DNA from: Candidatus Eiseniibacteriota bacterium
GTDB lineage: Bacteria > Eisenbacteria > RBG-16-71-46 > JABDJR01 > JAWXBZ01
DNA length: 15,852 nucleotides
Assembly (NCBI GenBank): GCA_034440375.1
Contig: JAWXBZ010000090.1
Coordinates: forward strand, 1-15,852
Direction of reading: 5' to 3'
Position numbers and translations under genes: made by a program. Positions 3,654-14,548 of this stretch are shown piece by piece. The number at the start of each line of letters is the position of its first letter. Positions within the stretch are counted from its first letter, which is position 1. The notes beneath the pieces were generated by a model that saw only the letters and a program-made list of their open reading frames with translations, did no database searches and had not been told where the DNA came from.

Positions 3654-4747
3654 GGATCGGCGTTCTAGGCGGTGGCCAGCTCGGGCGAATGCTGGCCCTG
3701 GCCGGACTGCCCCTGGGACACACGTTCACCTTTCTCGACCCCGGTGATGCGGCGCCCATGGCGCCCGTGGCCCGCCAGATCCGGGCCAGGTACGACGACA
3801 AGGCCGCGCTCGACCAACTCGCCGCCGCGTGCGATGTCGTCACCTGGGAATTCGAGAACGTTACGGCGGGCCCGCTGCTTCATCTGGAGGCCGACGGCGT
3901 GCCGGTGCGGCCCGGGCCCCGCTCCCTGGAGCCCAAGCAGGATCGCCTGGATGAGAAACTCTTCTTTCGTCGCCTCGGCATTCCCACCACGGACTTTGAG
4001 CCGGTTGATTCCCGATCGGAGTTCGACGGGGCGCTGAAGAGGCTCGGAACGCCGATCGTGGTCAAGACACGTCGCCAGGGGTACGACGGCAAGGGACAGG
4101 CGGTCATTGACCGGCCGGATCAGATCGAGGACGCCTGGGCCGGACTCGGTGGCCAGCCGTTGCTGCTCGAGAGGAAGATCCCCTTTGATCGAGAGCTCTC
4201 GATACTGGCCGTCCGCAGTTTGTCCGGCGAGTGTCGCTTCTGGCCGCTTGTCGAAAACAGGCACGAGTCGGGAATGCTGGTGAGAAGCGTGGCGCCGATG
4301 GCGGACGATACACCGCAGCTTGAAGCGCAGGCCGACGACTATGTCCGGCGCATTCTTGATTCGATTGGTCATGTCGGGGTGCTGGCGCTTGAGCTCTTCC
4401 AGGTGGGAGACGATCTGCTGGCCAACGAGATGGCACCCCGTGTGCACAACTCCGGCCACTGGACGATTGAGGGGGCGGTGACCAGCCAGTTCGCCAACCA
4501 CGTCAGGGCGATCACGGATCGACCGCTTGGTTCGTGCGAGGCGGTGGGCCTTTCCGTCATGATCAATCTCATCGGGACGGTCCCGGACGAGCACGCCTTG
4601 CTCACCGTCCCGGGAGCCTCGTTACATCTTTATGGGAAGTCAGAAGCTCCACGACGGAAGTTGGGTCATGTCACGGTGGTTTCACGGACGATCGAGGAAC
4701 GGATGAAGTCCCTCGCAGTCCTGGACTCGCTGCAATCCAAGGCTTAG
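3650..4747 (+). CDS. purK: N5-carboxyaminoimidazole ribonucleotide synthase (ATP-grasp)
   Basis: [46 protein letters not shown]...RKLGHV. ATGA overlap with the purE stop. Confidence 0.98.
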
Positions 4748-4983
4748 TTGACCAATATTGTATTAGAGTAAAACTCTTGATGGGCCACGGATAAAACGTG
4801 TGTCACCACGTTAATCGGGTCAATGGTGAATTCAAATTGAAACCGTAAACTTGTCAATAAAAGCCATTAACTTGTTTATAACACTCAAGTTAGGTTCTTG
4901 GCAGCCGATCACCACGCCAGACAAGAAACTGGGCAATTTGAACCAAATTGTCGCGAATCGACCCCCGTCGGGCTGGAGATGCA
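4748..4983 (+). promoter_or_regulatory. AT-rich promoter/regulatory region of the DUF11 operon
   Basis: Visibly AT-rich 236-bp intergenic region. Inverted repeats: TTCAA-A-TTGAA (4831-4841), TAACTTG-N11-CAAGTTA (4868-4892), CAATTTG-AAC-CAAATTG (4934-4950). RBS GGAG at 4975-4978. Confidence 0.6.
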
Positions 4984-6000
4984 ATGACTTCGTGTTTCAA
5001 CAAGAGAAATCCTGTTTGGGCAACATGGGTGACAGCCGCCATCGTCGTCAGCCTCTTCCTCGGCACCGCTTCGGAATCCGGAGCCGCCGGCACCGCGGCC
5101 TGCCGCGAGATCGTCAACCAGGCTACGGCCAGCTGGACGATTGGAATCACCGACTTCTCCGTGTCCAGCAATTCGGTCACGACGACCGTGGCGGAAATTC
5201 TGGATGTCGTCACGACCTGGCAGGATGCCTCGGCGGTGGTGGTGACCTCGGCCGCCACATCGCAGGTGCTGACGTTCCTCGTCACGAACATCGGGAACGG
5301 TACGGATTCCTACACGCTGACGCCGGCCGACAACCTGGGCGGCGACAACTTCGACCCGGGCTTCGTCCGCCTTGTGCTCGACAGCAACACCAACGGCATG
5401 TATGACGCGGGCGTCGACCAGCCATACCTGGCCGGCGTTGACGATCCGGTACTGGCCGCTGATTCGTCCGTTGTCGTCTTTGCCCTGAATGATGTCTCGG
5501 CCGGTCTGAATGATGGCGATACCGGCGACTTTCAACTGACCGCCACATCCAGAACCGGAAGCGGCGCCCCGGGCACAGTCATTCCCGGGGGCGGCGAATG
5601 CGGCAACAACGCGGTGGTCGGTAATTCCGGCGGCGAATCGTCAGCCATCGGCACCTACGTCAAGTCGGACGTTGTCGTCGGCATGACCAAGTCCGCCCAG
5701 GTCAGCGACCCGTTCGGCGGAACCGAACCGGTCCCAGGCGCCACCGTCACCTACACCATTCAGGTCACCATTTCAGGAACAGGGACGGCAAACAATCTCA
5801 ATATCGTCGATCCGATTCCGGCCAACACCACCTACGAGACTGGCTCGCTGACGCTCAACAGCGCCGGGCTCTCGGACGCCCTCGACCTGGACGCGGGAGA
5901 TGTTGGCGGAACGGCGGCCGACACGATCACCGTCCAGATGGGCAATGTCGCCGCCGGTGGTGGCGTTCACACGATCACGTTTACCGTCACCATCGATTGA
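4984..6000 (+). CDS. Secreted DUF11-family protein A, putative pilus shaft/minor subunit (N-terminal donor hairpin + middle Ig-like domain + C-terminal incomplete DUF11)
   Basis: ATG 4984 with RBS. Sec signal ends ...SESGA|. Mature N-terminus AGTAACREIVNQATASW...SSNSVTTTV. Middle domain has TNIGNGTD and DSNTNGMYDAGVD. C-terminal domain MTKSA...PGATVTYTI...IVDPIPANTTY...TITFTVTID*. The subunit role is inference. Confidence 0.85.
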   Translation: MTSCFNKRNPVWATWVTAAIVVSLFLGTASESGAAGTAACREIVNQATASWTIGITDFSVSSNSVTTTVAEILDVVTTWQDASAVVVTSAATSQVLTFLVTNIGNGTDSYTLTPADNLGGDNFDPGFVRLVLDSNTNGMYDAGVDQPYLAGVDDPVLAADSSVVVFALNDVSAGLNDGDTGDFQLTATSRTGSGAPGTVIPGGGECGNNAVVGNSGGESSAIGTYVKSDVVVGMTKSAQVSDPFGGTEPVPGATVTYTIQVTISGTGTANNLNIVDPIPANTTYETGSLTLNSAGLSDALDLDAGDVGGTAADTITVQMGNVAAGGGVHTITFTVTID

Positions 6001-6013
6001 GGGGGATGAACCG

Positions 6014-6496
6014 ATGACACGATTCCGCACGCTGCTGATGATGGTCGTTCTTGCGGTCGGCGCGACTGAAGTTCTGGCCGGCGAAGCCGTCACGCTCCAT
6101 ACCGAAGCCCTGACGGAAGTGACCCTGGTCAACGAAGAGGGCAAGACCGAAGTCCGACTCGTCGAGGCGGCCCGTGTGGCTCCCGGCGACGAGGTGGTGT
6201 ACGCCATCCACTGGGAAAACTCCGGCCGGAAGCCAGCCGAAGCTGTGGTGATCACCAATCCGATCCCGAAACACATGGTCTGCACGACGATCGAGGAGGC
6301 CGCCCCCGCGCGAACAACCGTGTCGGTGGACGGCGGCAAGTCGTTTGGCCCCCTGGCACGTCTGACGGTGGCCGGACCGAACGGGACGACCCGACCGGCG
6401 ACGGCCGCCGACTGCACACATGTGCGTTGGAATTTCGATCAGCCGCTTCCCCCGGGCCACAAGGGGACATTTCATTTTCGCGCCAACCTGCTCTAG
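6014..6496 (+). CDS. Small secreted DUF11-like protein B lacking the isopeptide residues (putative chaperone/cap)
   Basis: ATG 6014 after GGGGGA. Signal peptide ends ...TEVLA|. Sequence APGDEVVYAIHWENSG...VVITNPIP...SVDGGKSF...THVRW...FHFRANLL*. The role is inference. Confidence 0.82.
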   Translation: MTRFRTLLMMVVLAVGATEVLAGEAVTLHTEALTEVTLVNEEGKTEVRLVEAARVAPGDEVVYAIHWENSGRKPAEAVVITNPIPKHMVCTTIEEAAPARTTVSVDGGKSFGPLARLTVAGPNGTTRPATAADCTHVRWNFDQPLPPGHKGTFHFRANLL

Positions 6497-6523
6497 CCCC
6501 CACACTTCAGAAGGAGAACATCC

Positions 6524-7636
6524 GTGACGTTCCCGAACATCCACATTCCACTCGTTCGAGCTATACGCATCGTTGGCGCGGGGGCGCTGGTGATCGGCCT
6601 CGACATCGTGACGGCTCATGCGGCCGGCACGCTTTCCGGCACGGCCATCGACAACCATGCCACCATCAACTACAAGGTCGGCGGACTTGATCAGACACCG
6701 GTCGACAGCGATACGGCATCGTTCGTCGTCGACAGCAAGATCGACCTGGCGGTCTCGACCAGCGACGGAGCCGCCGTCCCCGTGACGCCCGGATCGAGCG
6801 ACCAGGTCCTGACGTTTCAAGTGACCAACGAGGGAAACACCACCCGCGATTTCTCGCTGACCGCGCCGAACTCCGCCACCCCCGCTTTTGCGGAGCCGTC
6901 GGAAGACTTCGATGCCGGCAACATTCGCATTTTTGTTGACGCCAACGGCAACGGCACCTACGACTCCGGTGTTGATCTGGCCACCTACATCGACGAACTC
7001 GAGCCCGATTCGTCGGTCACGGTCTTCGTCGTCTCGAACATTCCCCTCTCCGTGGGCAATGGTGATGTGGCCTCCACGGATCTGATCGCCCAGGCCGCCA
7101 TCGGCGGTACTCCCCTTTCGCAGGGTGTTGATGTGCTGAGCGATGATTCCGGTTCGGCCGACAATCCGGCCACGGTCCAGACCGTCTTCGCGGATGGCGC
7201 GGGCTCGGCGGATCCAGCCAATGACGGTCGCCACTCTTCGAAGGATGCCTACAAGGGCCGCTCGGCGGATCTGAACGTGTCGAAGACCGCGGACGTGTCA
7301 TTCGATCCGGTCAACGGCGGCACGAACCCCAAGGCGATTCCCGGTGCCACGGTCGATTACGGCATTCAGGTGGACAACAACGGCACCGTGTCGGCCACCA
7401 ATGTGGTGGTCGTGGACGCGGTTCCGGGTTCGACCTCATTCCTGGTCGGGTCGACGGCATCCACCCCGGGCGGCACCACCATCGAGTATTCCGACGACGG
7501 CGGAGCCACGTGGAGTTACTCGCCGGTGGCGGGCGTCGATGGCTCCGATCCGAGCGTCACCCATCTGCGCGTCACGTTCGCGTCCATCGCGAACGGGGCC
7601 GGTGGCCAGGTTGATTTCCAGGTCCTGATTCTCTAG
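6524..7636 (+). CDS. Secreted DUF11-family protein C, putative major pilus subunit
   Basis: GTG start with strong RBS AAGGAG. Signal ends ...TAHA|. Mature AGTLSGTAIDNHATINY...SDTASFVVD. Middle domain has TNEGNTTRD and DANGNGTYDSGVD. C-terminal domain LNVSKTA...KAIPGATVDY...VVDAVP...QVDFQVLIL*. Paralogous to protein A. Confidence 0.88.
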   Translation: MTFPNIHIPLVRAIRIVGAGALVIGLDIVTAHAAGTLSGTAIDNHATINYKVGGLDQTPVDSDTASFVVDSKIDLAVSTSDGAAVPVTPGSSDQVLTFQVTNEGNTTRDFSLTAPNSATPAFAEPSEDFDAGNIRIFVDANGNGTYDSGVDLATYIDELEPDSSVTVFVVSNIPLSVGNGDVASTDLIAQAAIGGTPLSQGVDVLSDDSGSADNPATVQTVFADGAGSADPANDGRHSSKDAYKGRSADLNVSKTADVSFDPVNGGTNPKAIPGATVDYGIQVDNNGTVSATNVVVVDAVPGSTSFLVGSTASTPGGTTIEYSDDGGATWSYSPVAGVDGSDPSVTHLRVTFASIANGAGGQVDFQVLIL

Positions 7637-7686
7637 TTCGACGATTCAGGCCTGTGTGTTCCTGACATTCATGCTGCAGTCAATGA

Positions 7687-7725
7687 ACGCGGTGGAACTG
7701 GCGTCGGTCGCCGGTTCCACCGCGT
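7687..7725 (+). other. Strong intergenic stem-loop (mRNA stabiliser or partial terminator)
   Basis: ACGCGGTGGAACTGGCG-TCGGT-CGCCGGTTCCACCGCGT: 17-bp stem (one G.U pair) with a 5-nt loop and no U-tract. Confidence 0.75.
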
Positions 7726-7752
7726 CGTCCTGATCGAAAGACGAGGGTCTTG

Positions 7753-10700
7753 ATGGGGTGGATTCGACCGTTGCGACGAAGCCTGGCGCTGGGACTGTTG
7801 CTGGCGGCAGTTGTCGTCGGCCAGGCTCGCGGCAGCACGCCCGCCGGCACGACCATCACGAACACCGCTTTCGGGGCCTACCATCTGGTCGGAGTTGCGG
7901 ACACAGTTCGAACCCCCTCCAATTCGGTGACACTGATCACACGGGGTGGCCGCACCCCGGCCATATTGGAATTCCTGCGCCATGCGCCAGGTGCGCCGGA
8001 TGCCGAGTGGGTTCGGGTCAGCCGCATCGACACAACCCTGTCGCTGCCCCTCTTGCCGGCGGTGACCTTCTCACCGGGTGACGTTGTCGTGATGCGACTC
8101 ACCGATCGGGATCAGGACATCCAACGCAGTTCTGGTGAAACGGTCGCCGTCGAACTGGCGGTGAATCCGCTGGGTGATCACGAACTGGTTCTCCTCCACG
8201 AAACCGGTCCAGGCACCGGTGTGTTTGCCGGTTCCATGCCCAGCCGACTCGCCGCGCGCGCCATCCCGGGCAACGGCCGGCTGGAGGCGCGCACCATGGC
8301 TGAAGTCACCGGTCACTACGTCGATTTCGTCGACCCGACCGACACGGCTGCCGACATCGCCCTCTTTGCCGGCGAGGGGGCGCGGCTTCACCTGGACAAA
8401 TCGTCCGCACGGGCACGCGCCGCCATTGGCGACATCGTCGAGTACACGCTGCGCGTCGCGAATCCCGACCCATCGGAATCGGCCGAATCGGAGCGGGCGA
8501 CTTTGGTTCGCCTCGTGGATGATCTTCCCCGCGGCTTTCGCTACCGGCCGGGCACGACCCTGCGGGATGGACGACCAACCGGGAACCCCGAAATTTCCTC
8601 CGACGGCCGACAGCTTGTCTTCTCGATCGGCGACCTGGAGCCCGGTGAACCCGCTGCCATACGCTACGCAGTTGAAATCGGTGCGGGAAGCCGCTCGGGC
8701 GAAGCCATCAACTCCGCCGAGGCCGTTTCCTCCTCCGGACTGACATCGAACAGGGCCAGCGCATCGATTCTGGTCGCGGACGATTTTTTCCGCCACGGAT
8801 TCATCAGCGGCCGGGTGACCGTCGGTTCGTGCGATTCCACAGCGGTGCGAATCGGTGTTGCGGGAGTCCGGCTGTTTCTTGAAGACGGTACGTGGACGGC
8901 CACCGATGGGAACGGGCGCTACCACTTTCTGGGAGTGCCGGGCGGGATGCACGTGGTGGCATTGGATCGGGAAAGCCTGCCCCCGGGATTAATCCCCGCC
9001 GACTGTCCAACGACGCATCGGTTCGCCCGAAGTCTGGATTCGCAGTTTGTGCCGCTTTCCGAAGGGACTCTGTGGCGCGCGGATTTTCTCCTCGAACGAG
9101 GCGTTGGAGAGCGAGGCGGCACAGAGGGCGACGCTCCCGTCCATTCGGTGAGAGGTAATATTTCCGCGCACGATTCGACCCGGGCGGCGCCGAAGATGGC
9201 ACCGCCGACGGTTTTGATTGAATCATTGACTCCAGGCGACGAATGGCTCTGGCCGACCGAGGGATACAACCCTTCGATTCCAGGGCTCGCCGTCATGGTG
9301 AAGCACGCCGCCAAAGCGACAATCGAACTCACGAACAACGGCCGCGCCGTACCCGCGGTCAACCTGTCGGGAACATCCCGCAATGCCGACGGCACGGTGG
9401 CCGTTACCAACTGGGCCGGCATCGACCTGGTCATTGGTGAAAACCGGCTGGTAGTTCGCCTCGAGCAGGACGGCACCGTCACGACCTTGACTCGCACGAT
9501 TCACTACTCCGGGCCGCCGGTTGATGTATCGCTGGCAACGGGCGAATCGCGGCTGGTGGCGGATGGGCTCACCTCGCCGATCGTGGCGGTCCGCCTTGTC
9601 GATCGTGACGGACACCCCGCACGCGAACGTGTGGTCGGCACGTTTCATGTCGATCCGCCATACCGTTCCATGAGTCAGCTCGACGCGCAACGGGATAACC
9701 CTCTGGCCACGACGCCGGCACCCCAGTATCAGGTCGGACCGGACGGCATCGCCCGGATCGCGCTCGAGCCGACGCACCGGGCGGGTGAGGTCGTGCTGCG
9801 GTTTCCATTCGATGGGCGCATGAAGGAAGTGCGCGCCTGGCTTTCCCCGTCGGATCGCGGCTGGATGCTGGTGGGACTGGCCGACGGCACCGTTGGCTAC
9901 CGAACCATGTCCGACCATACCGAGTCGCTCGACGCCAACACCTCGGACGGTGATTACTACAGCAACGGCCGGCTGGCCTTCTACGCTCGCGGACGCGTCA
10001 AGGGTGAATGGCTGCTGACCCTGGCCATGGACACGAATGGGGGGCGGCCGGGTCCTTCTGCGGACCTCGACCGGGTCATCGATCCGGACAGCTACTACAC
10101 ACTCTACGGCGATGCCACCGCGCAGGATTACGATGCGCCGACATCGGGCAAAGTCTACGTGAGAATCGAACAGCGTCAGTTCTACGCCCTGTTCGGTGAC
10201 ACCGACGCGGGGCTTGCCCGGACGGAACTCAGCCGCTACAACCGACGGATCAGCGGTTTCAAGTCGGAGTACCGGGGACGACATGCCGGCTGGACGGCCT
10301 TCGCCGCCGAGTCCGAGAGCCGCTTCGTTCGCCGCGAGATTCGGGGCAACGGCACCTCCGGTCCCTACGACCTCGACCACCTGGAGATGGTGCTCAACTC
10401 TGAGCAGGTCACGATCGAAACGCGGGACCGCTTTCGGAGCGAAATCATTCTCCGCTCGGCCATCATGCATCGACATACCGACTACGACATCGATTATGCG
10501 GCCGGCACACTTTTTTTCCGTGAACCGATCTTCAGCCAGGATGCTGAATTCAACCCGATCTTCCTGGTTATCACATTCGAGTCCCGCGATCCGGAATCGA
10601 ACCGCATCCAGGCCGGTGGACGCGCGTCGCTGCATCTGGCCGGCGGAGCCGTCGAGACCGGCCTGACCGGCATCTACAATGAAGACGGCACCTCGCCGGG

Positions 10701-12312
10701 TCGACTGGCCGGTGGCGACATCCAGTGGCATGTTGACCCGATGACGACCGTTCGCGGCGAAGGGGCGTGGAGTGAGAATGGTGACGGACGGCAGGGATCG
10801 GCCTGGTTGGCCCAGCTGGAACGTCACGGCGGGCGGCTCGATGGCACCGCCTGGTTTCGACGCCAGGCAGCCGGCTTCGGCCTGGCACAACAGAATCAAA
10901 GCGAGCAGGGAATCGAGAAGTACGGCGCTGATCTGTCCTGGCATGCAACCCGGGCCGACCGCGCCACCTTGCAAGCCTGGCGCGAGCTCAACCTGTCCAG
11001 CGGGTCGCGCCGCGATGTGGGCGCGGTCGGCATTCAACATGACGCCGGACGACTGAATCTGCGCGCCGGGTTGCGGCACGCCGAGGATGATATCCCGGGC
11101 CGGCCCGAGGCCATTTCGGATCAGCTGACCGCGGGTGGTGATGTGCGTTTCTTCCGCGGCCGACTGAGCCTCAAGGCCGATCATCACCAATCGATTGGTG
11201 ATCGAGGTGCCAATGTCGACTACCCGACCCGAACCCTCCTCGGTGCCGACTGGCGCGTCATGCGAAATCTGAGCCTGATCGTGGCCCAGGAATTCACCAA
11301 CGGACCCTCGGTCGACACCCGTGCCACCCGTGTGGGCCTTACTTCGGAACCGTGGAGCGGTGGGGAAGTGGCCACCTCGCTCAGTCGCCGCGGCACGGAG
11401 GAGGGAAGCCGACTCTTCGCCAACCTGGGCCTGCACCAGAAGTGGCGCCTTTCGGATCGCTGGTTCATGGATGCTGGACTGGATCATAGCCGCACGATCG
11501 GCACGCCCGAGAGCCTCCGGGTCAACCCGGCCGCTTCTCCCGCGTCGTCCGGCGTGGCCGACTTCGTATCCGCTTCCGTAGGCGCGGCCCGCCACGGGGA
11601 CAAATGGCAGTGGAACGGGCGTGCCGAGTATTTCAATTCCAGGGGCGAGAGGCGCTGGACATTTGCCCCGAGTTTTCTCATTCAGCCCCGCGAGGCACTC
11701 GGCGTGGCCTTCGGTGGTCGGCTCTTCCTGACGCGCGGCCCGGTGGAACGGACTCGCGCCGACCTTCGTGCCAGCCTGGCCATTCGGCCGGACGATTCCC
11801 CCTGGGTGGCACTCAATCGTCTTGATCTGGTCGTGCTCGATGAGTCGGGCGGAAGCTCCGAAATCCGCGAGTGGCGCCTCATCGACAACCTTCACATCAA
11901 TCGTTCGATCGGGTCACATCTCCAGGCAACCGTTCAGTACGGCGGCAAGTACATCGAACAGACCGTGATGGGCCGGATTCTTTCCGGATATACCGACCTC
12001 TGGGGGCTCGATCTCCGCCGGGATATTGCGGATAACCTGGATGTTGGCCTGTCCGGTGGAGTCCGACACAGCTGGACACCCGGCCTCCGGGATTACCATG
12101 CCGGCGTTTCAGCCGGGTACATTCTGGCCCGCGGCGTCTGGTTGCAGGGCGGCTACAACATCACCGGGTTCGAGGACGAGGACTTCAGCGGGTCCGCGGT
12201 AACGAGTCACGGTCCCTACCTGCGACTGAGCGCCATCCTTGTCACCGATGCGCTGACCCGCCTCGGCTTCGGTGGCCATTCGAAACTACGGCGGAACGGG
12301 GGAACTCCATGA
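7753..12312 (+). CDS. Large outer-membrane protein D: donor hairpin, complete DUF11, SdrD-B-like and Ig-like domains, C-terminal beta-barrel (putative usher/anchor)
   Basis: About 1519 aa. Signal ends ...QARG|, then STPAGTTITNTA...SNSVTL. Complete DUF11: LDKSS...GDIVEYTL...VDDLP...AINSA...SNRASA. SdrD-B-like segment GVAGVRLFLEDG...TDGNGRYHF. From about 9860 it contains ~800 aa of alternating, Gly/aromatic-rich amphipathic strands ending GYNITGFEDEDFS...GPYLRL. Confidence 0.85.
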   Translation: MGWIRPLRRSLALGLLLAAVVVGQARGSTPAGTTITNTAFGAYHLVGVADTVRTPSNSVTLITRGGRTPAILEFLRHAPGAPDAEWVRVSRIDTTLSLPLLPAVTFSPGDVVVMRLTDRDQDIQRSSGETVAVELAVNPLGDHELVLLHETGPGTGVFAGSMPSRLAARAIPGNGRLEARTMAEVTGHYVDFVDPTDTAADIALFAGEGARLHLDKSSARARAAIGDIVEYTLRVANPDPSESAESERATLVRLVDDLPRGFRYRPGTTLRDGRPTGNPEISSDGRQLVFSIGDLEPGEPAAIRYAVEIGAGSRSGEAINSAEAVSSSGLTSNRASASILVADDFFRHGFISGRVTVGSCDSTAVRIGVAGVRLFLEDGTWTATDGNGRYHFLGVPGGMHVVALDRESLPPGLIPADCPTTHRFARSLDSQFVPLSEGTLWRADFLLERGVGERGGTEGDAPVHSVRGNISAHDSTRAAPKMAPPTVLIESLTPGDEWLWPTEGYNPSIPGLAVMVKHAAKATIELTNNGRAVPAVNLSGTSRNADGTVAVTNWAGIDLVIGENRLVVRLEQDGTVTTLTRTIHYSGPPVDVSLATGESRLVADGLTSPIVAVRLVDRDGHPARERVVGTFHVDPPYRSMSQLDAQRDNPLATTPAPQYQVGPDGIARIALEPTHRAGEVVLRFPFDGRMKEVRAWLSPSDRGWMLVGLADGTVGYRTMSDHTESLDANTSDGDYYSNGRLAFYARGRVKGEWLLTLAMDTNGGRPGPSADLDRVIDPDSYYTLYGDATAQDYDAPTSGKVYVRIEQRQFYALFGDTDAGLARTELSRYNRRISGFKSEYRGRHAGWTAFAAESESRFVRREIRGNGTSGPYDLDHLEMVLNSEQVTIETRDRFRSEIILRSAIMHRHTDYDIDYAAGTLFFREPIFSQDAEFNPIFLVITFESRDPESNRIQAGGRASLHLAGGAVETGLTGIYNEDGTSPGRLAGGDIQWHVDPMTTVRGEGAWSENGDGRQGSAWLAQLERHGGRLDGTAWFRRQAAGFGLAQQNQSEQGIEKYGADLSWHATRADRATLQAWRELNLSSGSRRDVGAVGIQHDAGRLNLRAGLRHAEDDIPGRPEAISDQLTAGGDVRFFRGRLSLKADHHQSIGDRGANVDYPTRTLLGADWRVMRNLSLIVAQEFTNGPSVDTRATRVGLTSEPWSGGEVATSLSRRGTEEGSRLFANLGLHQKWRLSDRWFMDAGLDHSRTIGTPESLRVNPAASPASSGVADFVSASVGAARHGDKWQWNGRAEYFNSRGERRWTFAPSFLIQPREALGVAFGGRLFLTRGPVERTRADLRASLAIRPDDSPWVALNRLDLVVLDESGGSSEIREWRLIDNLHINRSIGSHLQATVQYGGKYIEQTVMGRILSGYTDLWGLDLRRDIADNLDVGLSGGVRHSWTPGLRDYHAGVSAGYILARGVWLQGGYNITGFEDEDFSGSAVTSHGPYLRLSAILVTDALTRLGFGGHSKLRRNGGTP

Positions 12313-13949
12313 AGCCGCGGGGAACCGGCGTTGCGCTGCTGGCCGCCTGGCTGTTTTTTGGCGTTGGTTCGGCCATTGCCGTGTGTGTTTGCGGCTACGG
12401 CGACGGATTTTTTACCACGCATACAAACATCGTGATCGATGGCAGCATGGTCGACTGGGCCACGGTTCTGCTAGACACGGACAACACGTCCTGTGATGGC
12501 GCCACGCCCAATGTGCCACCCCAGCCGGATCGCGACGCGCCAGTCCAGTCGACCGGGCGCGATCTGAGTCAGTTCACCTACACATGGAACGGCACCCATG
12601 TTCAGACCCAGACCGTGAGGGCCGCCAGCTCCACCAACGTGCAACGCTTCATCTATTACGCGGATCTGGATAACGACGGTTTCATGGAAACCGGTGAGCG
12701 GGTCATCGTCGCCGGCTGGAAGGGCTCCAACCGCAACGTCGAGCTGTACCTGGGTCACTATGTGGCCAGCGCTCCCGCCGGTGATCCAATGGTCGACACG
12801 AACGGCTTTGCCGATGGTTACACCCTTCCGGGAAGGGTTCCCGACCTTCCGTCAGCCGGTCAACCCCACTACTCGGGAAACTGGGGATCGCTGGATGGCG
12901 TCTCCATGGAGTGGCGCGTGTCCTGGGCCGATGCGCCGGGAGCGCCCGGCCTTGGCGTCGCCCCCGGTTCGGCCTTCACGTTCCACGTGTCCAGCACCAA
13001 TTCCAATCCGGGGGCCGCATCCTTCCCGGACCAGGTGGACGACAACATGGCCGGATGCGGCGGTGGCGCGGCCACGACGCAGTATGCCCAACTGGACTTC
13101 TTTCCCGATCGAAGCCTCGTGACGACGGCCGGATCGGTCGTCCACGCCGCCCATCGGGTCGCGAACCTCGGAAATGGTAACGACCTCTTCGACCTGACGG
13201 CGGGAACGCCTTCGGGCGCCCATTCGCCGACCATGACTTTCCTGCGGGATGTCGATCGAAGCGGCACCTGGACGGCCGGCGACCTGGCCCTCGTCAACAC
13301 CGGCGGCGGGTCCGCGGTAGACACCGGCACGATGGCGCCGGGCGATACCCTCTGGGTTCTGATCCGTTACACCGTGGCCGGGGGTGCCACCGGAACCGCG
13401 ACGATTGTTTCCACTGCACGGTCCGGCTTCAATCCAAACCGGACCAACATCGTGACCGACACCGTGGCCATCACCCAGCTTCCCAAACTGTTGGTCACCA
13501 AGAGCTCGCAGACGATTTACGATCCGGTGGCCGGTGTCAGTGCCACGGCCAAGGCCATACCGGATGCCCGCGTGGACTACACCATTCGCATCGAGAACGA
13601 AGGGACTGGAAGCGCAGATGCCAACACGGTCACGATCACCGATCCGTTGCCGGCCACGACCCGGCTCTACGTGGGCAATCTGGGTGGAATCGGTTCGGGC
13701 CCGGTTGCCTTCACGGACGGTTCACCGGTCAGCGGGCTGGTGTACATCTTCATCAGCCTGGCCAGCCCGGTGGACAATGTGGCGTTTTCGAACGATGGCG
13801 GAGCCACGTTCACGTACACGCCATCTCCGGATATCGAAGGTTTCGACGAGTCGGTCACCCACCTGCGAATAAGCTTCCTGGGTTCGATGAATGCGGCGGC
13901 GGGGGGCAACCCGTGGGCCAGGGTCCGCTTCCGGGTGGCCGTAAGGTAG
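12309..13949 (+). CDS. Secreted DUF11-family protein E, putative tip adhesin (unique Cys-containing N-terminal domain + middle domain + incomplete DUF11)
   Basis: ATGA overlap with the D stop. Signal ends ...SAIA|VCVCG. About 230-aa unique N-domain with 4 Cys. Middle domain has ANLGNGND and DVDRSGTW. C-terminal domain LLVTKSS...KAIPDARVDY...ITDPLP...FSNDGGATF...VTHLRI...VRFRVAVR*. Confidence 0.85.
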   Translation: MKPRGTGVALLAAWLFFGVGSAIAVCVCGYGDGFFTTHTNIVIDGSMVDWATVLLDTDNTSCDGATPNVPPQPDRDAPVQSTGRDLSQFTYTWNGTHVQTQTVRAASSTNVQRFIYYADLDNDGFMETGERVIVAGWKGSNRNVELYLGHYVASAPAGDPMVDTNGFADGYTLPGRVPDLPSAGQPHYSGNWGSLDGVSMEWRVSWADAPGAPGLGVAPGSAFTFHVSSTNSNPGAASFPDQVDDNMAGCGGGAATTQYAQLDFFPDRSLVTTAGSVVHAAHRVANLGNGNDLFDLTAGTPSGAHSPTMTFLRDVDRSGTWTAGDLALVNTGGGSAVDTGTMAPGDTLWVLIRYTVAGGATGTATIVSTARSGFNPNRTNIVTDTVAITQLPKLLVTKSSQTIYDPVAGVSATAKAIPDARVDYTIRIENEGTGSADANTVTITDPLPATTRLYVGNLGGIGSGPVAFTDGSPVSGLVYIFISLASPVDNVAFSNDGGATFTYTPSPDIEGFDESVTHLRISFLGSMNAAAGGNPWARVRFRVAVR

Positions 13950-13954
13950 GAGGC

Positions 13955-14548
13955 CTATCGTCCCGGGTGTTCGACCAGGCCTAGTTCGCCCGGCGGCAGC
14001 GGCCGGGTCGGCAGCACGCCGGCGGCTTCCATTCCTTCAGCCACCTCGACAAAAAGCGCCTGCATCGTCTCGTCAGCGAGAACGATGACCACCCTGGTCA
14101 GGCTCGACTGATTGTTGAGATACCGGATAATCGTGTCGAGAATGATCTCGGCGGCCCGTCGGGGCGGGAATCCAGACTCGCCGGCCGAAATGGCCGGCAT
14201 GGCCAGACTCCGAAGGCCGTTCTGGTCGGCCACACGGAGAATTCGGTAAATGGTCGATCGGAGTTTTTCGTCTTCGTCCCCTTCACCCCAGCGTGGCCCG
14301 ACCGCGTGGATGACATGCAGCGCCTTGAGCTCGCCACCGCTGGTGATGACCGCGTCGCCGGTCGGCACGGGGGCCTTCCGGTTGCACTCGAGCTGGATCA
14401 TCTTGCCGCCCTTCTGGCGGATCAGGACGGACACGCCCGACTTGAGCACGAGCCCGGAGTTGGCGGGATTGACGATGGCGTCTTCCTCACGCTCCGTCAG
14501 GTCGCCGACGGTAATTTCGAAAGTGGCCCGATGCAGTTGGCGTTTCAT
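13955..14548 (-). CDS. Macro domain protein (MacroD/YmdB-like ADP-ribose-binding fold)
   Basis: GDLT...DAIVNPAN, GDAVITSGGELKALHVIHAVGP, SLAMPAISAG..GFP. Convergent with gene E across a 5-nt gap. Confidence 0.92.
   Translation of the reverse strand: MKRQLHRATFEITVGDLTEREEDAIVNPANSGLVLKSGVSVLIRQKGGKMIQLECNRKAPVPTGDAVITSGGELKALHVIHAVGPRWGEGDEDEKLRSTIYRILRVADQNGLRSLAMPAISAGESGFPPRRAAEIILDTIIRYLNNQSSLTRVVIVLADETMQALFVEVAEGMEAAGVLPTRPLPPGELGLVEHPGR

Follow-up and report, generated by a model that had tools for sequence, protein, structure and literature searches.

A window of 15,852 nucleotides from contig JAWXBZ010000090.1 of a Candidatus Eiseniibacteriota genome contains five adjacent genes, here named A to E, which encode secreted proteins built around a split DUF11 domain. 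In A, C, and E, the C-terminal DUF11 domain keeps the Lys and Asp of an isopeptide triad and ends before its last two β-strands, while an Asn-bearing hairpin corresponding to these strands forms the mature N terminus of A, C, and D. We propose that these proteins probably assemble head to tail into a Sec-dependent surface fiber of a diderm bacterium, E-(A/C)n-D, in which the hairpin of each subunit would complete the truncated domain of its neighbor and be locked there by a Lys-Asn isopeptide bond. An earlier sequence-only reading had advanced this same chain; our in silico analysis supports the donor and acceptor roles that it assigned and the junction between E and C, while isopeptide formation and the polymerization of A and C stay predictions.

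Split DUF11 domains in a five-gene cluster

The five genes are all on one strand with tight spacing and housekeeping genes on both sides, the start codon of E sharing four bases with the stop codon of D. The five open reading frames (ORFs) are as follows.

4984-6000, + strand: gene A, 338 amino acids (aa), secreted donor and acceptor subunit
6014-6496, + strand: gene B, 160 aa, small secreted acceptor-like protein
6524-7636, + strand: gene C, 370 aa, secreted donor and acceptor subunit
7750-12312, + strand: gene D, 1520 aa, with signal peptide, donor hairpin, immunoglobulin (Ig)-like domains, complete DUF11 domain, and a predicted giant outer-membrane β-barrel
12309-13949, + strand: gene E, 546 aa, acceptor-only subunit

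Sec-type signal peptides can be read from the sequences of all five products. In the same reading, no lipobox Cys was seen at the signal cleavage site in any of the five. LPxTG is likewise absent from A-E, and A, B, C, and E terminate on a β-strand.

The Pfam DUF11 model (PF01345, cut-off 24.6 bits) matches D over profile positions 2-112 of 114, with 30.0 bits. In the other proteins the match is shorter: positions 11-96 of 114 in A (residues 247-335, 25.9 bits) and 11-48 in E (26.6 bits), both above the cut-off, and positions 9-67 in C (23.6 bits) and 8-51 in B (22.9 bits), both below it. All five proteins score above the TIGR01451 cut-off, B with 27.8 bits. The chain ends of A (...TITFTVTID), B (...TFHFRANLL), C (...QVDFQVLIL), and E (...RVRFRVAVR) all correspond to the internal ...AIRYAVEIG of D. 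As judged from Pfam coverage and the alignment to the complete domain of D, the DUF11 domains of A, C, and E are thus cut off before the last two strands. The missing hairpin, with its Asn, is the mature N terminus of A, C, and D, where it aligns with the last two strands of the D domain. Both features had been noticed in the sequence-only reading, together with twelve Lys, Asp, and Asn positions, and they stand: at 12/12 of these positions, an in-frame codon for the stated residue begins (K236, D276, and N45 in A; K254, D298, and N44 in C; K217, D257, N321, and N38 in D; K398 and D445 in E). The triad lies within one contiguous domain only in D (K217/D257/N321). In A, C, and E, the triad Asn is outside the truncated domain, either at the opposite terminus or in a different chain. 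The corresponding features are as follows.

5089-5190, + strand: donor hairpin of A, right after the signal peptide, Asn45 at 5116-5118; iterated hairpin profile, 33.8 bits
5668-5997, + strand: acceptor domain of A, K236 at 5689 and D276 at 5809; Lys and Asp profile columns both occupied, profile match to the last residue (tail 0)
6626-6730, + strand: donor hairpin of C, Asn44 at 6653-6655; hairpin profile, 51.5 bits
7244-7633, + strand: acceptor domain of C, K254 at 7283 and D298 at 7415; profile match, tail 1
7837-7935, + strand: donor hairpin of D, Asn38 at 7861-7863; hairpin profile, 24.8 bits
8386-8763, + strand: complete DUF11/CLIPPER domain of D, with K217, D257, and N321; predicted intramolecular isopeptide
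13461-13946, + strand: acceptor domain of E, K398 at 13500 and D445 at 13641; profile match to the last residue

DUF11 has been renamed CLIPPER, and the available part of the report describes a crystal structure (9IFR) with an intramolecular Lys715-Asn806 isopeptide and Asp748 (PMC12617251). Like this stalk domain, as far as that text goes, the complete domain of D belongs to the CLIPPER family and carries a Lys/Asp/Asn triad, the spacing of K217, D257, and N321 being comparable to that of Lys715, Asp748, and Asn806. In the structural model of C, the acceptor (model residues 214-337) resembles CnaA-type pilin domains, with Z scores of 8.6 for Mfa5 (root-mean-square deviation [rmsd] 2.9, 97 residues aligned), 7.5 for SpaA (rmsd 2.4, 100 aligned), and 7.2 for RrgB. 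A matches TIGR04226 (RrgB_K2N_iso_D2) with 23.3 bits, below the cut-off of 30.

Searches against solved structures with phmmer, using C and D as queries, gave 0 matches at E-value ≤1. No Pfam family was above cut-off in D 29-210, in D 340-1520, or in the N-terminal parts of E, A, and C, subthreshold matches being GEVED (E-value 0.017), CarboxypepD_reg (0.038), and FG-GAP_3 (0.075). An Asp-box-like motif, S/N-x-D-G-G-x-T/S-W/F, occurs in the acceptors of C (7487-7513), E (13785-13811), and B (6320-6346). When a profile of 47 C homologues was compared with solved chains, this stretch gave the sole match, to BNR/Asp-box sialidases, at E-value ≥0.27.

Donor and acceptor roles across related loci

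With the C family as query and one genome per species, we found at least 512 related loci and kept 80 for a census. These 80 loci span Eisenbacteria, Krumholzibacteria, Zixibacteria, Fibrobacteraceae, Thermodesulfobacteriota, Campylobacterales, Spirochaetales, Chromatiales, Steroidobacteraceae, Moraxellaceae, Burkholderiales, and many sphingomonads. Named isolates are among those with related loci, such as Novosphingobium arvoryzae KCTC 32422, Erythrobacter litoralis SNB-035, and Sphingomonas sp. IC-56, and the nearest of the kept loci belongs to a Candidatus Eiseniibacteriota metagenome-assembled genome. Among 7999 scored candidates, 791 were homologues of C at E-value ≤1e-5, and C homologues occur in Desulfosudis oleivorans; we found 278 homologues of E and 127 of the N-terminal part of D, Microbulbifer species being among the sources of D homologues. 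In databases, the homologues are named just "DUF11 domain-containing," "TIGR01451 family," or "OmpA family" proteins.

The triad residues are strongly conserved. K254 and D298 do not vary across 47 C homologues, in which conservation of N44 is at least 90%. Across 48 E homologues, K398 and D445 are invariant, even though E has no donor Asn. The internal triad of D is retained in 106 of 120 D homologues.

The census used one hairpin profile and two profiles of the truncated domain, and none of the three had a match in 5891 reversed sequences. In the database proteins, the hairpin always starts within the first 100 residues (191/191). Together, these two results argue that the split pattern is not due to chance. 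A signal-peptide-like hydrophobic run precedes the hairpin in 192 of 199 cases, and of 368 distinct hairpins, 354 have Asn in the isopeptide column. At the C-terminal end, all full acceptor matches (score ≥30; 156/156) terminate 0-6 residues before the stop codon. A loose regular expression for the hairpin, which matched 113 of 120 D homologues, was too permissive and was replaced by the profile.

The five roles assigned in the window recur in these loci of many phyla. ORFs with both donor and acceptor number 110, in 75 of the 80 loci, and 105 of them have the Lys and the Asp. Among the 49 ORFs of at least 1200 aa (D type), 45 have an N-terminal donor and none has a terminal acceptor. Acceptor-only proteins of at least 390 aa with Lys and Asp number 33, in 33 loci. 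When scored on homologues, the hairpin profile is passed by 115/120 for C, 76/120 for D, and 0/120 for E, and all 76 D hairpins have the Asn. The recurrence of the roles and the conservation of the triad thus agree with what had been predicted from the window.

An operon such as the one in the window has three donors (A, C, and D) and three acceptors of the covalent type (A, C, and E). In the 37 loci that have a D-type gene and sufficient upstream DNA, two donor-acceptor genes are present in 28, one in 8, and none was detected in 1. One of the two is dispensable, as indicated by the eight loci with just one. The core seems to consist of B, C, D, and E, with A as an extra subunit. C is the constant subunit and the probable shaft, and A, a homologue of which is the first gene of the operon in L013 and L014, is probably a minor or adaptor pilin. 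When all ORFs of at least 120 aa were clustered, no sixth gene proved to be conserved in the 80 loci. The other clusters were alternative-frame shadows, a response regulator found in 11 loci, and housekeeping genes of particular lineages.

B had been read as an acceptor lacking both Lys and Asp, and so it is: Asn replaces the catalytic Asp, and the first strand is without Lys. B-type proteins occur once per locus in 76 of the 80 loci, with a catalytic Asp column composed of N (60), D (8), S (5), and I (3), versus D in 229 of the 237 other acceptor rows. Where Asn fills the Asp column, as in 21 acceptor-only ORFs, the Lys is replaced by a gap, T, or S. The chains of B-type proteins end 3-5 residues beyond the profile. 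These features are consistent with B being a noncovalent decoy acceptor, or a chaperone, for donor hairpins.

Two variations were seen among these families. Two D homologues (P0300 and P0301) have Asp in place of the donor Asn (..I-D-S/Q-P-A..). Since Lys-Asp isopeptides occur in CnaB-type domains, these proteins may use Lys-Asp chemistry. In two loci of more distant relatives, L019 (~5554-6870; G038) and L020 (~5503-6782; G034), two small secreted proteins of ~190-215 aa precede the D-like gene. Their mature N terminus, A-A-D-N-T/S-A-T/Y-G..., is not the hairpin motif, and they may represent a variant type of subunit.

Models of the E:C junction and of the D barrel

We modeled mature C with AlphaFold2 (AF2), which gave a mean predicted local distance difference test score (pLDDT) of 93.7 and a predicted template modeling score (pTM) of 0.79, with 88-95 in the hairpin blocks. 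Since the hairpin can be satisfied only within its own chain, this monomer is no test of docking in cis versus in trans. A Foldseek search with the model retrieved generic tandem-Ig proteins only (integrin legs, antigen I/II, and CfaB fusions), with template modeling (TM) scores ≤0.34.

We therefore consider the two modes of docking on the basis of a competition, in which E mature 250-522 (an acceptor and no donor) was modeled with the whole of mature C (a donor and an acceptor). Because one acceptor stays empty in either outcome, neither docking is favored by bookkeeping. The hairpin of C was placed on the acceptor of E despite the presence of C's own, with ipSAE values of 0.85, 0.86, and 0.85 versus 0.00 for the best of three controls. 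Of 80 solved complexes, 58 attain that mark, as do just 2 of 110 mismatched pairs. At least 99% of contacts are shared between runs, and partner pLDDT is at least 91. In the model, the hairpin lies on the first strands and the Asp strand of E. The interface comprises residues 1-3, 5, 7, 9-21, 24, and 27-39 of mature C, that is, the hairpin including N11 (N44 of the full chain), and residues 365-427, 503, and 521-522 of mature E, including K374 (K398) and D421 (D445). One chain's hairpin thus completes its partner's C-terminal domain in the model, with Lys, Asp, and Asn at the interface, as had been predicted for this pair. A sequence search found no similar complex among solved chains, which makes it unlikely that the result comes from the memory of the model. 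The linker of C also takes part.

7175-7252, + strand: linker between the middle domain and the acceptor of C (VFADGAG...DGxHSSxD), in which mature V188, F189, D191, D201, G202, and S205 are invariant

Residues 175-180, 182, 186, 188-190, and 200 of this linker (mature numbering) contact the acceptor of E in the complex, and the linker may set the angle between subunits or choose between cis and trans docking. Independently of any model, at least one inter-chain junction is required, since E is acceptor only with invariant Lys and Asp and D is donor only.

As an acceptor-only subunit, E would be the distal tip or an adhesin, and its N-terminal part is a candidate binding module.

12381-13133, + strand: N-terminal domain of E, matching no named family, with four invariant Cys and a DxDxDG-like loop

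The invariant Cys are C2, C4, C38, and C226 of the mature protein (26, 28, 62, and 250 of the full chain). Leads from searches are weak, with FG-GAP_3 at E-value 0.075 and all protein atlas feature matches below 0.9. Its sequence makes the domain a candidate head for ligand binding, with two disulfides and a calcium site. In ten loci (L048, L052, L054, L062, L065, L067, L070, L073, L084, and L093), from Steroidobacteraceae and other Pseudomonadota, an E-type gene (870-1180 aa) is on the opposite strand and not downstream of D. The tip gene can therefore be separately transcribed.

The C-terminal module of D had been described as a membrane barrel from its sequence, and modeling agrees.

9865-12255, + strand: barrel module of D, about residues 706-1502 (~800 residues), as delimited by the AF2 model and a fold search

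The AF2 model of D 490-1520 (pLDDT 79.6, pTM 0.73) shows over 30 long strands after the Ig-like domains. In a VIA search with model residues 217-1013, outer-membrane barrels filled rows 1-34 of the list and most of its 50 rows. The module matches maltoporin with a Z score of 13.9 (rmsd 5.5, 233 residues aligned) and the translocation domain of FimD with 12.9 (rmsd 6.5, 309 aligned). It also aligns with TonB receptors, SlpA (448 residues), and SprA (419 residues), all roughly tied. With Foldseek, the first matches are Deinococcus SlpA/SDBC (8agd, 8ae1, and 7zgx; E-values 7.5e-9 to 2.5e-8), followed by LptD and TonB receptors, with TM scores of ~0.2. No Pfam family is above cut-off for the module, which nevertheless has relatives in 3026 clusters at 50% identity at E-value ≤1e-3, and in 1179 at 1e-30. 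The source genome has six Omp85 matches above cut-off. On these models, the C terminus of D is predicted to be a very large outer-membrane barrel outside described families, and a distant kinship with ushers is conceivable. D would be the base, the anchor, and the terminator of the fiber and possibly also its translocon, a role that is a guess because the barrel matches are tied across classes. Many D homologues from other phyla (1800-2400 aa; P0246-P0329 and others) end in an OmpA peptidoglycan-binding domain (PF00691) and have extra Ig-like repeats (PF13620 and PF17210). The D of the window and its closest relatives (~1500 aa) are without the OmpA domain.

Proposed assembly, rival explanations, and known systems

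The order of the proposed chain is derived from the possession of donors and acceptors, E having an acceptor only, A and C both, and D a donor only. Subunits would cross the inner membrane via Sec. In the periplasm, the dead acceptor B would hold donor hairpins reversibly, which would prevent premature joining. At D, the hairpin of an incoming subunit would complete the acceptor of the last subunit of the chain. This docking would rebuild the domain and bring Lys, Asn, and Asp together, so that the Lys-Asn bond would form without an enzyme and make each step irreversible without ATP, and the irreversibility of the bond would drive the exchange of hairpins from B to the real acceptor. E would enter first and end up distal, followed by C, plus A where present. 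Since D is donor only, it would end the chain, its hairpin linking the chain covalently to the outer membrane via its own barrel, which might also be the exit pore. The assembled chain would have the topology of a single-chain DUF11 stalk adhesin, the breaks in which would be bridged by isopeptides. It might be long, as in a pilus, or a defined stalk with n = 1-2.

Several points weigh against this assembly. The confidence of the hairpin in the C monomer fits docking on its own acceptor, in which case A and C might self-complement. Complex modeling covered a single pair, E:C, and its score is the model's own confidence, obtained with custom alignments, which makes the calibration rough. The hairpin profile was trained iteratively on the same sets that were later counted, so that its counts describe the pattern and do not test it. 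Moreover, 44 of the 120 D homologues fail this profile (some are cut or mis-started), 4 of the 49 D-type ORFs have no detected donor, and the A/C, D, and E types are all present in 24 of the 80 loci only, largely owing to short contigs. Finally, the D barrel matches porins, FimD, and TonB receptors equally well (Z 12-14, rmsd 5-9 Å).

Three other explanations can be set beside the E-(A/C)n-D chain. A and C might be circularly permuted monomers, each hairpin locking the C-terminal domain of its own chain, in which case only E and D would join between chains. A single adhesin fixed to a barrel in the outer membrane would result, and A and C would be secreted as proteins in their own right. The compact AF2 monomer of C, confident throughout including the hairpin (pLDDT 88-95, pTM 0.79), would suit such a protein, as would its ~40-residue linker (mature 161-202), which could permit the acceptor to fold back. 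The available part of one report also shows AlphaFold monomers of archaeal tafi subunits in a closed, self-complemented form (PMC11821415). We nevertheless consider permuted monomers unlikely. The monomer model is no test, and when both acceptors were offered, the hairpin of C docked on E. The conserved linker, with its six invariant residues, touches the acceptor of the partner in the model of trans docking; 75/80 loci retain A and C beside B, D, and E; and B is left unexplained. Permutation within the chain is also inadequate to account for the asymmetry of the roles, with donors in 0/120 E homologues and in 45/49 D-type ORFs, of which 0/49 have acceptors.

It is quite improbable, in our view, that there is no complementation at all, the short domain being a stable seven-strand Ig variant and the N-terminal motif a sorting signal read by the D barrel, with D as a dedicated secretion system for Ig-like adhesins. 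The motif does lie exactly at the mature N terminus, which is typical of sorting signals, and DUF7507, to which C has a weak match (22.9 bits, below cut-off), is described as a compact seven-strand form in the accessible portion of the survey (PMC12617251). Against this, the motif can be aligned, isopeptide Asn included, with the final two strands of the complete DUF11 domain of D. E keeps an invariant Lys and Asp without having an Asn of its own to pair with, D itself bears the motif in 45/49, and the complex model places the motif as strands of the E sheet. A surface layer or sheath anchored in the outer membrane, with D as a porin-like anchor decorated noncovalently by the Ig-like proteins, is a very remote prospect. 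What recommends it is that the top Foldseek matches of the D barrel are SlpA/SDBC of Deinococcus radiodurans and that there is a faint match to an anammox S-layer model. The TM score of the former is low (~0.2) and the VIA matches are tied over all barrel classes, while the latter is far under its cut-off (13.8 bits versus 1400). The split domain, the conservation of Lys, Asp, and Asn, and the donor/acceptor asymmetry would all be unexplained.

The E-(A/C)n-D chain has parallels among known fibers. According to the parts of two reports that are available, the tip adhesin of chaperone-usher pili has an acceptor without a donor, a donor-bearing last subunit terminates the chain, and assembly is Sec-dependent and ATP-free with an outer-membrane barrel as base (PMC9715654, PMC11821415). 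As in these pili, an N-terminal donor would complete the previous Ig fold, as it does in the E:C model, the tip would have no donor (0/120 in E homologues), and assembly would be tip first. Unlike in chaperone-usher pili, the donor is a two-strand hairpin of a CnaA-type domain equipped with the residues for a covalent lock, and there is no PapD_N or Usher family, B, the only candidate chaperone, being an acceptor and not a strand donor. D also differs from an usher in that it bears the terminating donor itself and in its barrel of ~800 residues, which is larger than the usher's and belongs to no Pfam family. In the source genome, which is 93.66% complete and in which the locus is single copy, we found 0 matches to Usher (PF00577), 0 to the PapD-like chaperone (PF00345, PapD_N; the Escherichia coli control was positive), and none to Sortase (PF04203). 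The ORFs of the window include no PapD-like chaperone either.

In sortase pili, Lys-Asn bonds are intramolecular, within domains, and the bond between subunits is made by sortase at LPxTG. Like SpaA and RrgB, both of which match the acceptor of C, the predicted fiber would be covalent and made of CnaA/CnaB-type domains. It differs in that the genome encodes no sortase, the proteins have no LPxTG, and a bond of the intradomain type is predicted between subunits. Conceptually, a natural split of an isopeptide domain resembles Tag/Catcher pairs, such as the engineered SpyTag/SpyCatcher, itself a split isopeptide domain. Type V pili (FimA/Mfa1) use a lipoprotein precursor, an N-terminal strand released by a protease, and a C-terminal donor strand. 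Here, by contrast, the Sec signals are without lipobox Cys and the donor is N-terminal.

The combination of strand exchange with a covalent lock is not without precedent. In Clostridium perfringens BsaA, as described in the part of the preprint available, an N-terminal donor inserts in the neighbor's sheet and a spontaneous Asn-Lys isopeptide forms (N35, K74, and E56), the acidic residue catalyzing the bond and alanine variants losing oligomers (10.1101/2024.11.04.621531). The system of the window, for which this is a prediction, shares with BsaA, a member of the TasA family, donor-strand exchange followed by an isopeptide lock. On the same partial text, BsaA differs in its Gram-positive host, its TasA fold, its Glu instead of Asp, and its single strand instead of a hairpin, and it shows no outer-membrane base, no acceptor-only tip, and no dead acceptor. 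Pfam scans of A-E and of their parts found no TasA-related family, and the triad is the K-D-N of DUF11, not N-E-K. For the threads of Sulfolobus acidocaldarius (Saci_0406), the accessible sections describe head-to-tail subunits joined by donor strand complementation and propose enzyme-free isopeptides between subunits, from the N-terminal amine of Asp24 to Asn57 in subunits n and n+2 (PMC9715654). Threads and the predicted fiber thus have complementation combined with covalent links in common. As far as those sections go, threads are archaeal, with no outer membrane, their bond is not a Lys-Asn bond within one rebuilt domain, and they have no Pfam family. The DUF11/CLIPPER survey deals with the complete intramolecular domain of long single-chain adhesins, no split or intermolecular form being discussed in its available text (PMC12617251), and the isopeptide passages of a 2026 review of bacterial surfaces, the portion at hand, name the chaperone-usher, type IV, sortase, and curli pathways without a system of this kind (PMC13721041). 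We found no description of this system in the literature searched, where coverage is thin for subscription journals. The claim of novelty made with the sequence-only reading is accordingly narrowed. The principle of exchange and lock is already known, from BsaA and as proposed for Sulfolobus threads, while this fold (DUF11), this envelope (diderm), and this machinery are new.

Covalent pili are textbook Gram-positive biology and depend on sortase, and to our knowledge, Gram-negative fibers are held together noncovalently. If the E-(A/C)n-D chain is real, many diderm phyla make covalent fibers that need no enzyme and are tied covalently to an outer-membrane protein. The system would then represent a new route of assembly that has its own platform in the outer membrane. 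It would give a function to a large barrel family without a Pfam model (3026 clusters, at least 512 loci) and be a natural source of orthogonal Tag/Catcher pairs, including a nonreactive catcher in B. We also raise, tentatively and at somewhat less than an even chance, a broader possibility, namely a new class of diderm pilus biogenesis. This would be a pathway of five genes (minimally four) without chaperone-usher, sortase, or type IV parts, in which folded Ig-like subunits would polymerize through the exchange of donor hairpins, autocatalytic isopeptides would supply both energy and irreversibility, B would act as an inverse chaperone, and the D barrel would be translocon, terminator, and covalent anchor at once. 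Covalent pili would in that case be widespread, from Eisenbacteria and Zixibacteria to sphingomonads, Campylobacterales, and Gammaproteobacteria.

As for the surroundings of the cluster, a promoter scan of 4600-14200 found no site upstream of gene A, and terminator-like sites in the same interval are rarer than in shuffled sequence. The upstream neighbors are an aldehyde dehydrogenase gene and purK, and the downstream neighbors encode a macro-domain protein and a YqeY-like protein. The macro-domain gene (PF01661, E-value 1.7e-32; 13955-14548, - strand) adjoins E in convergent orientation and is not kept with related loci elsewhere. The database copy of D (P0241) has 1519 aa, its start being the ATG at 7753.

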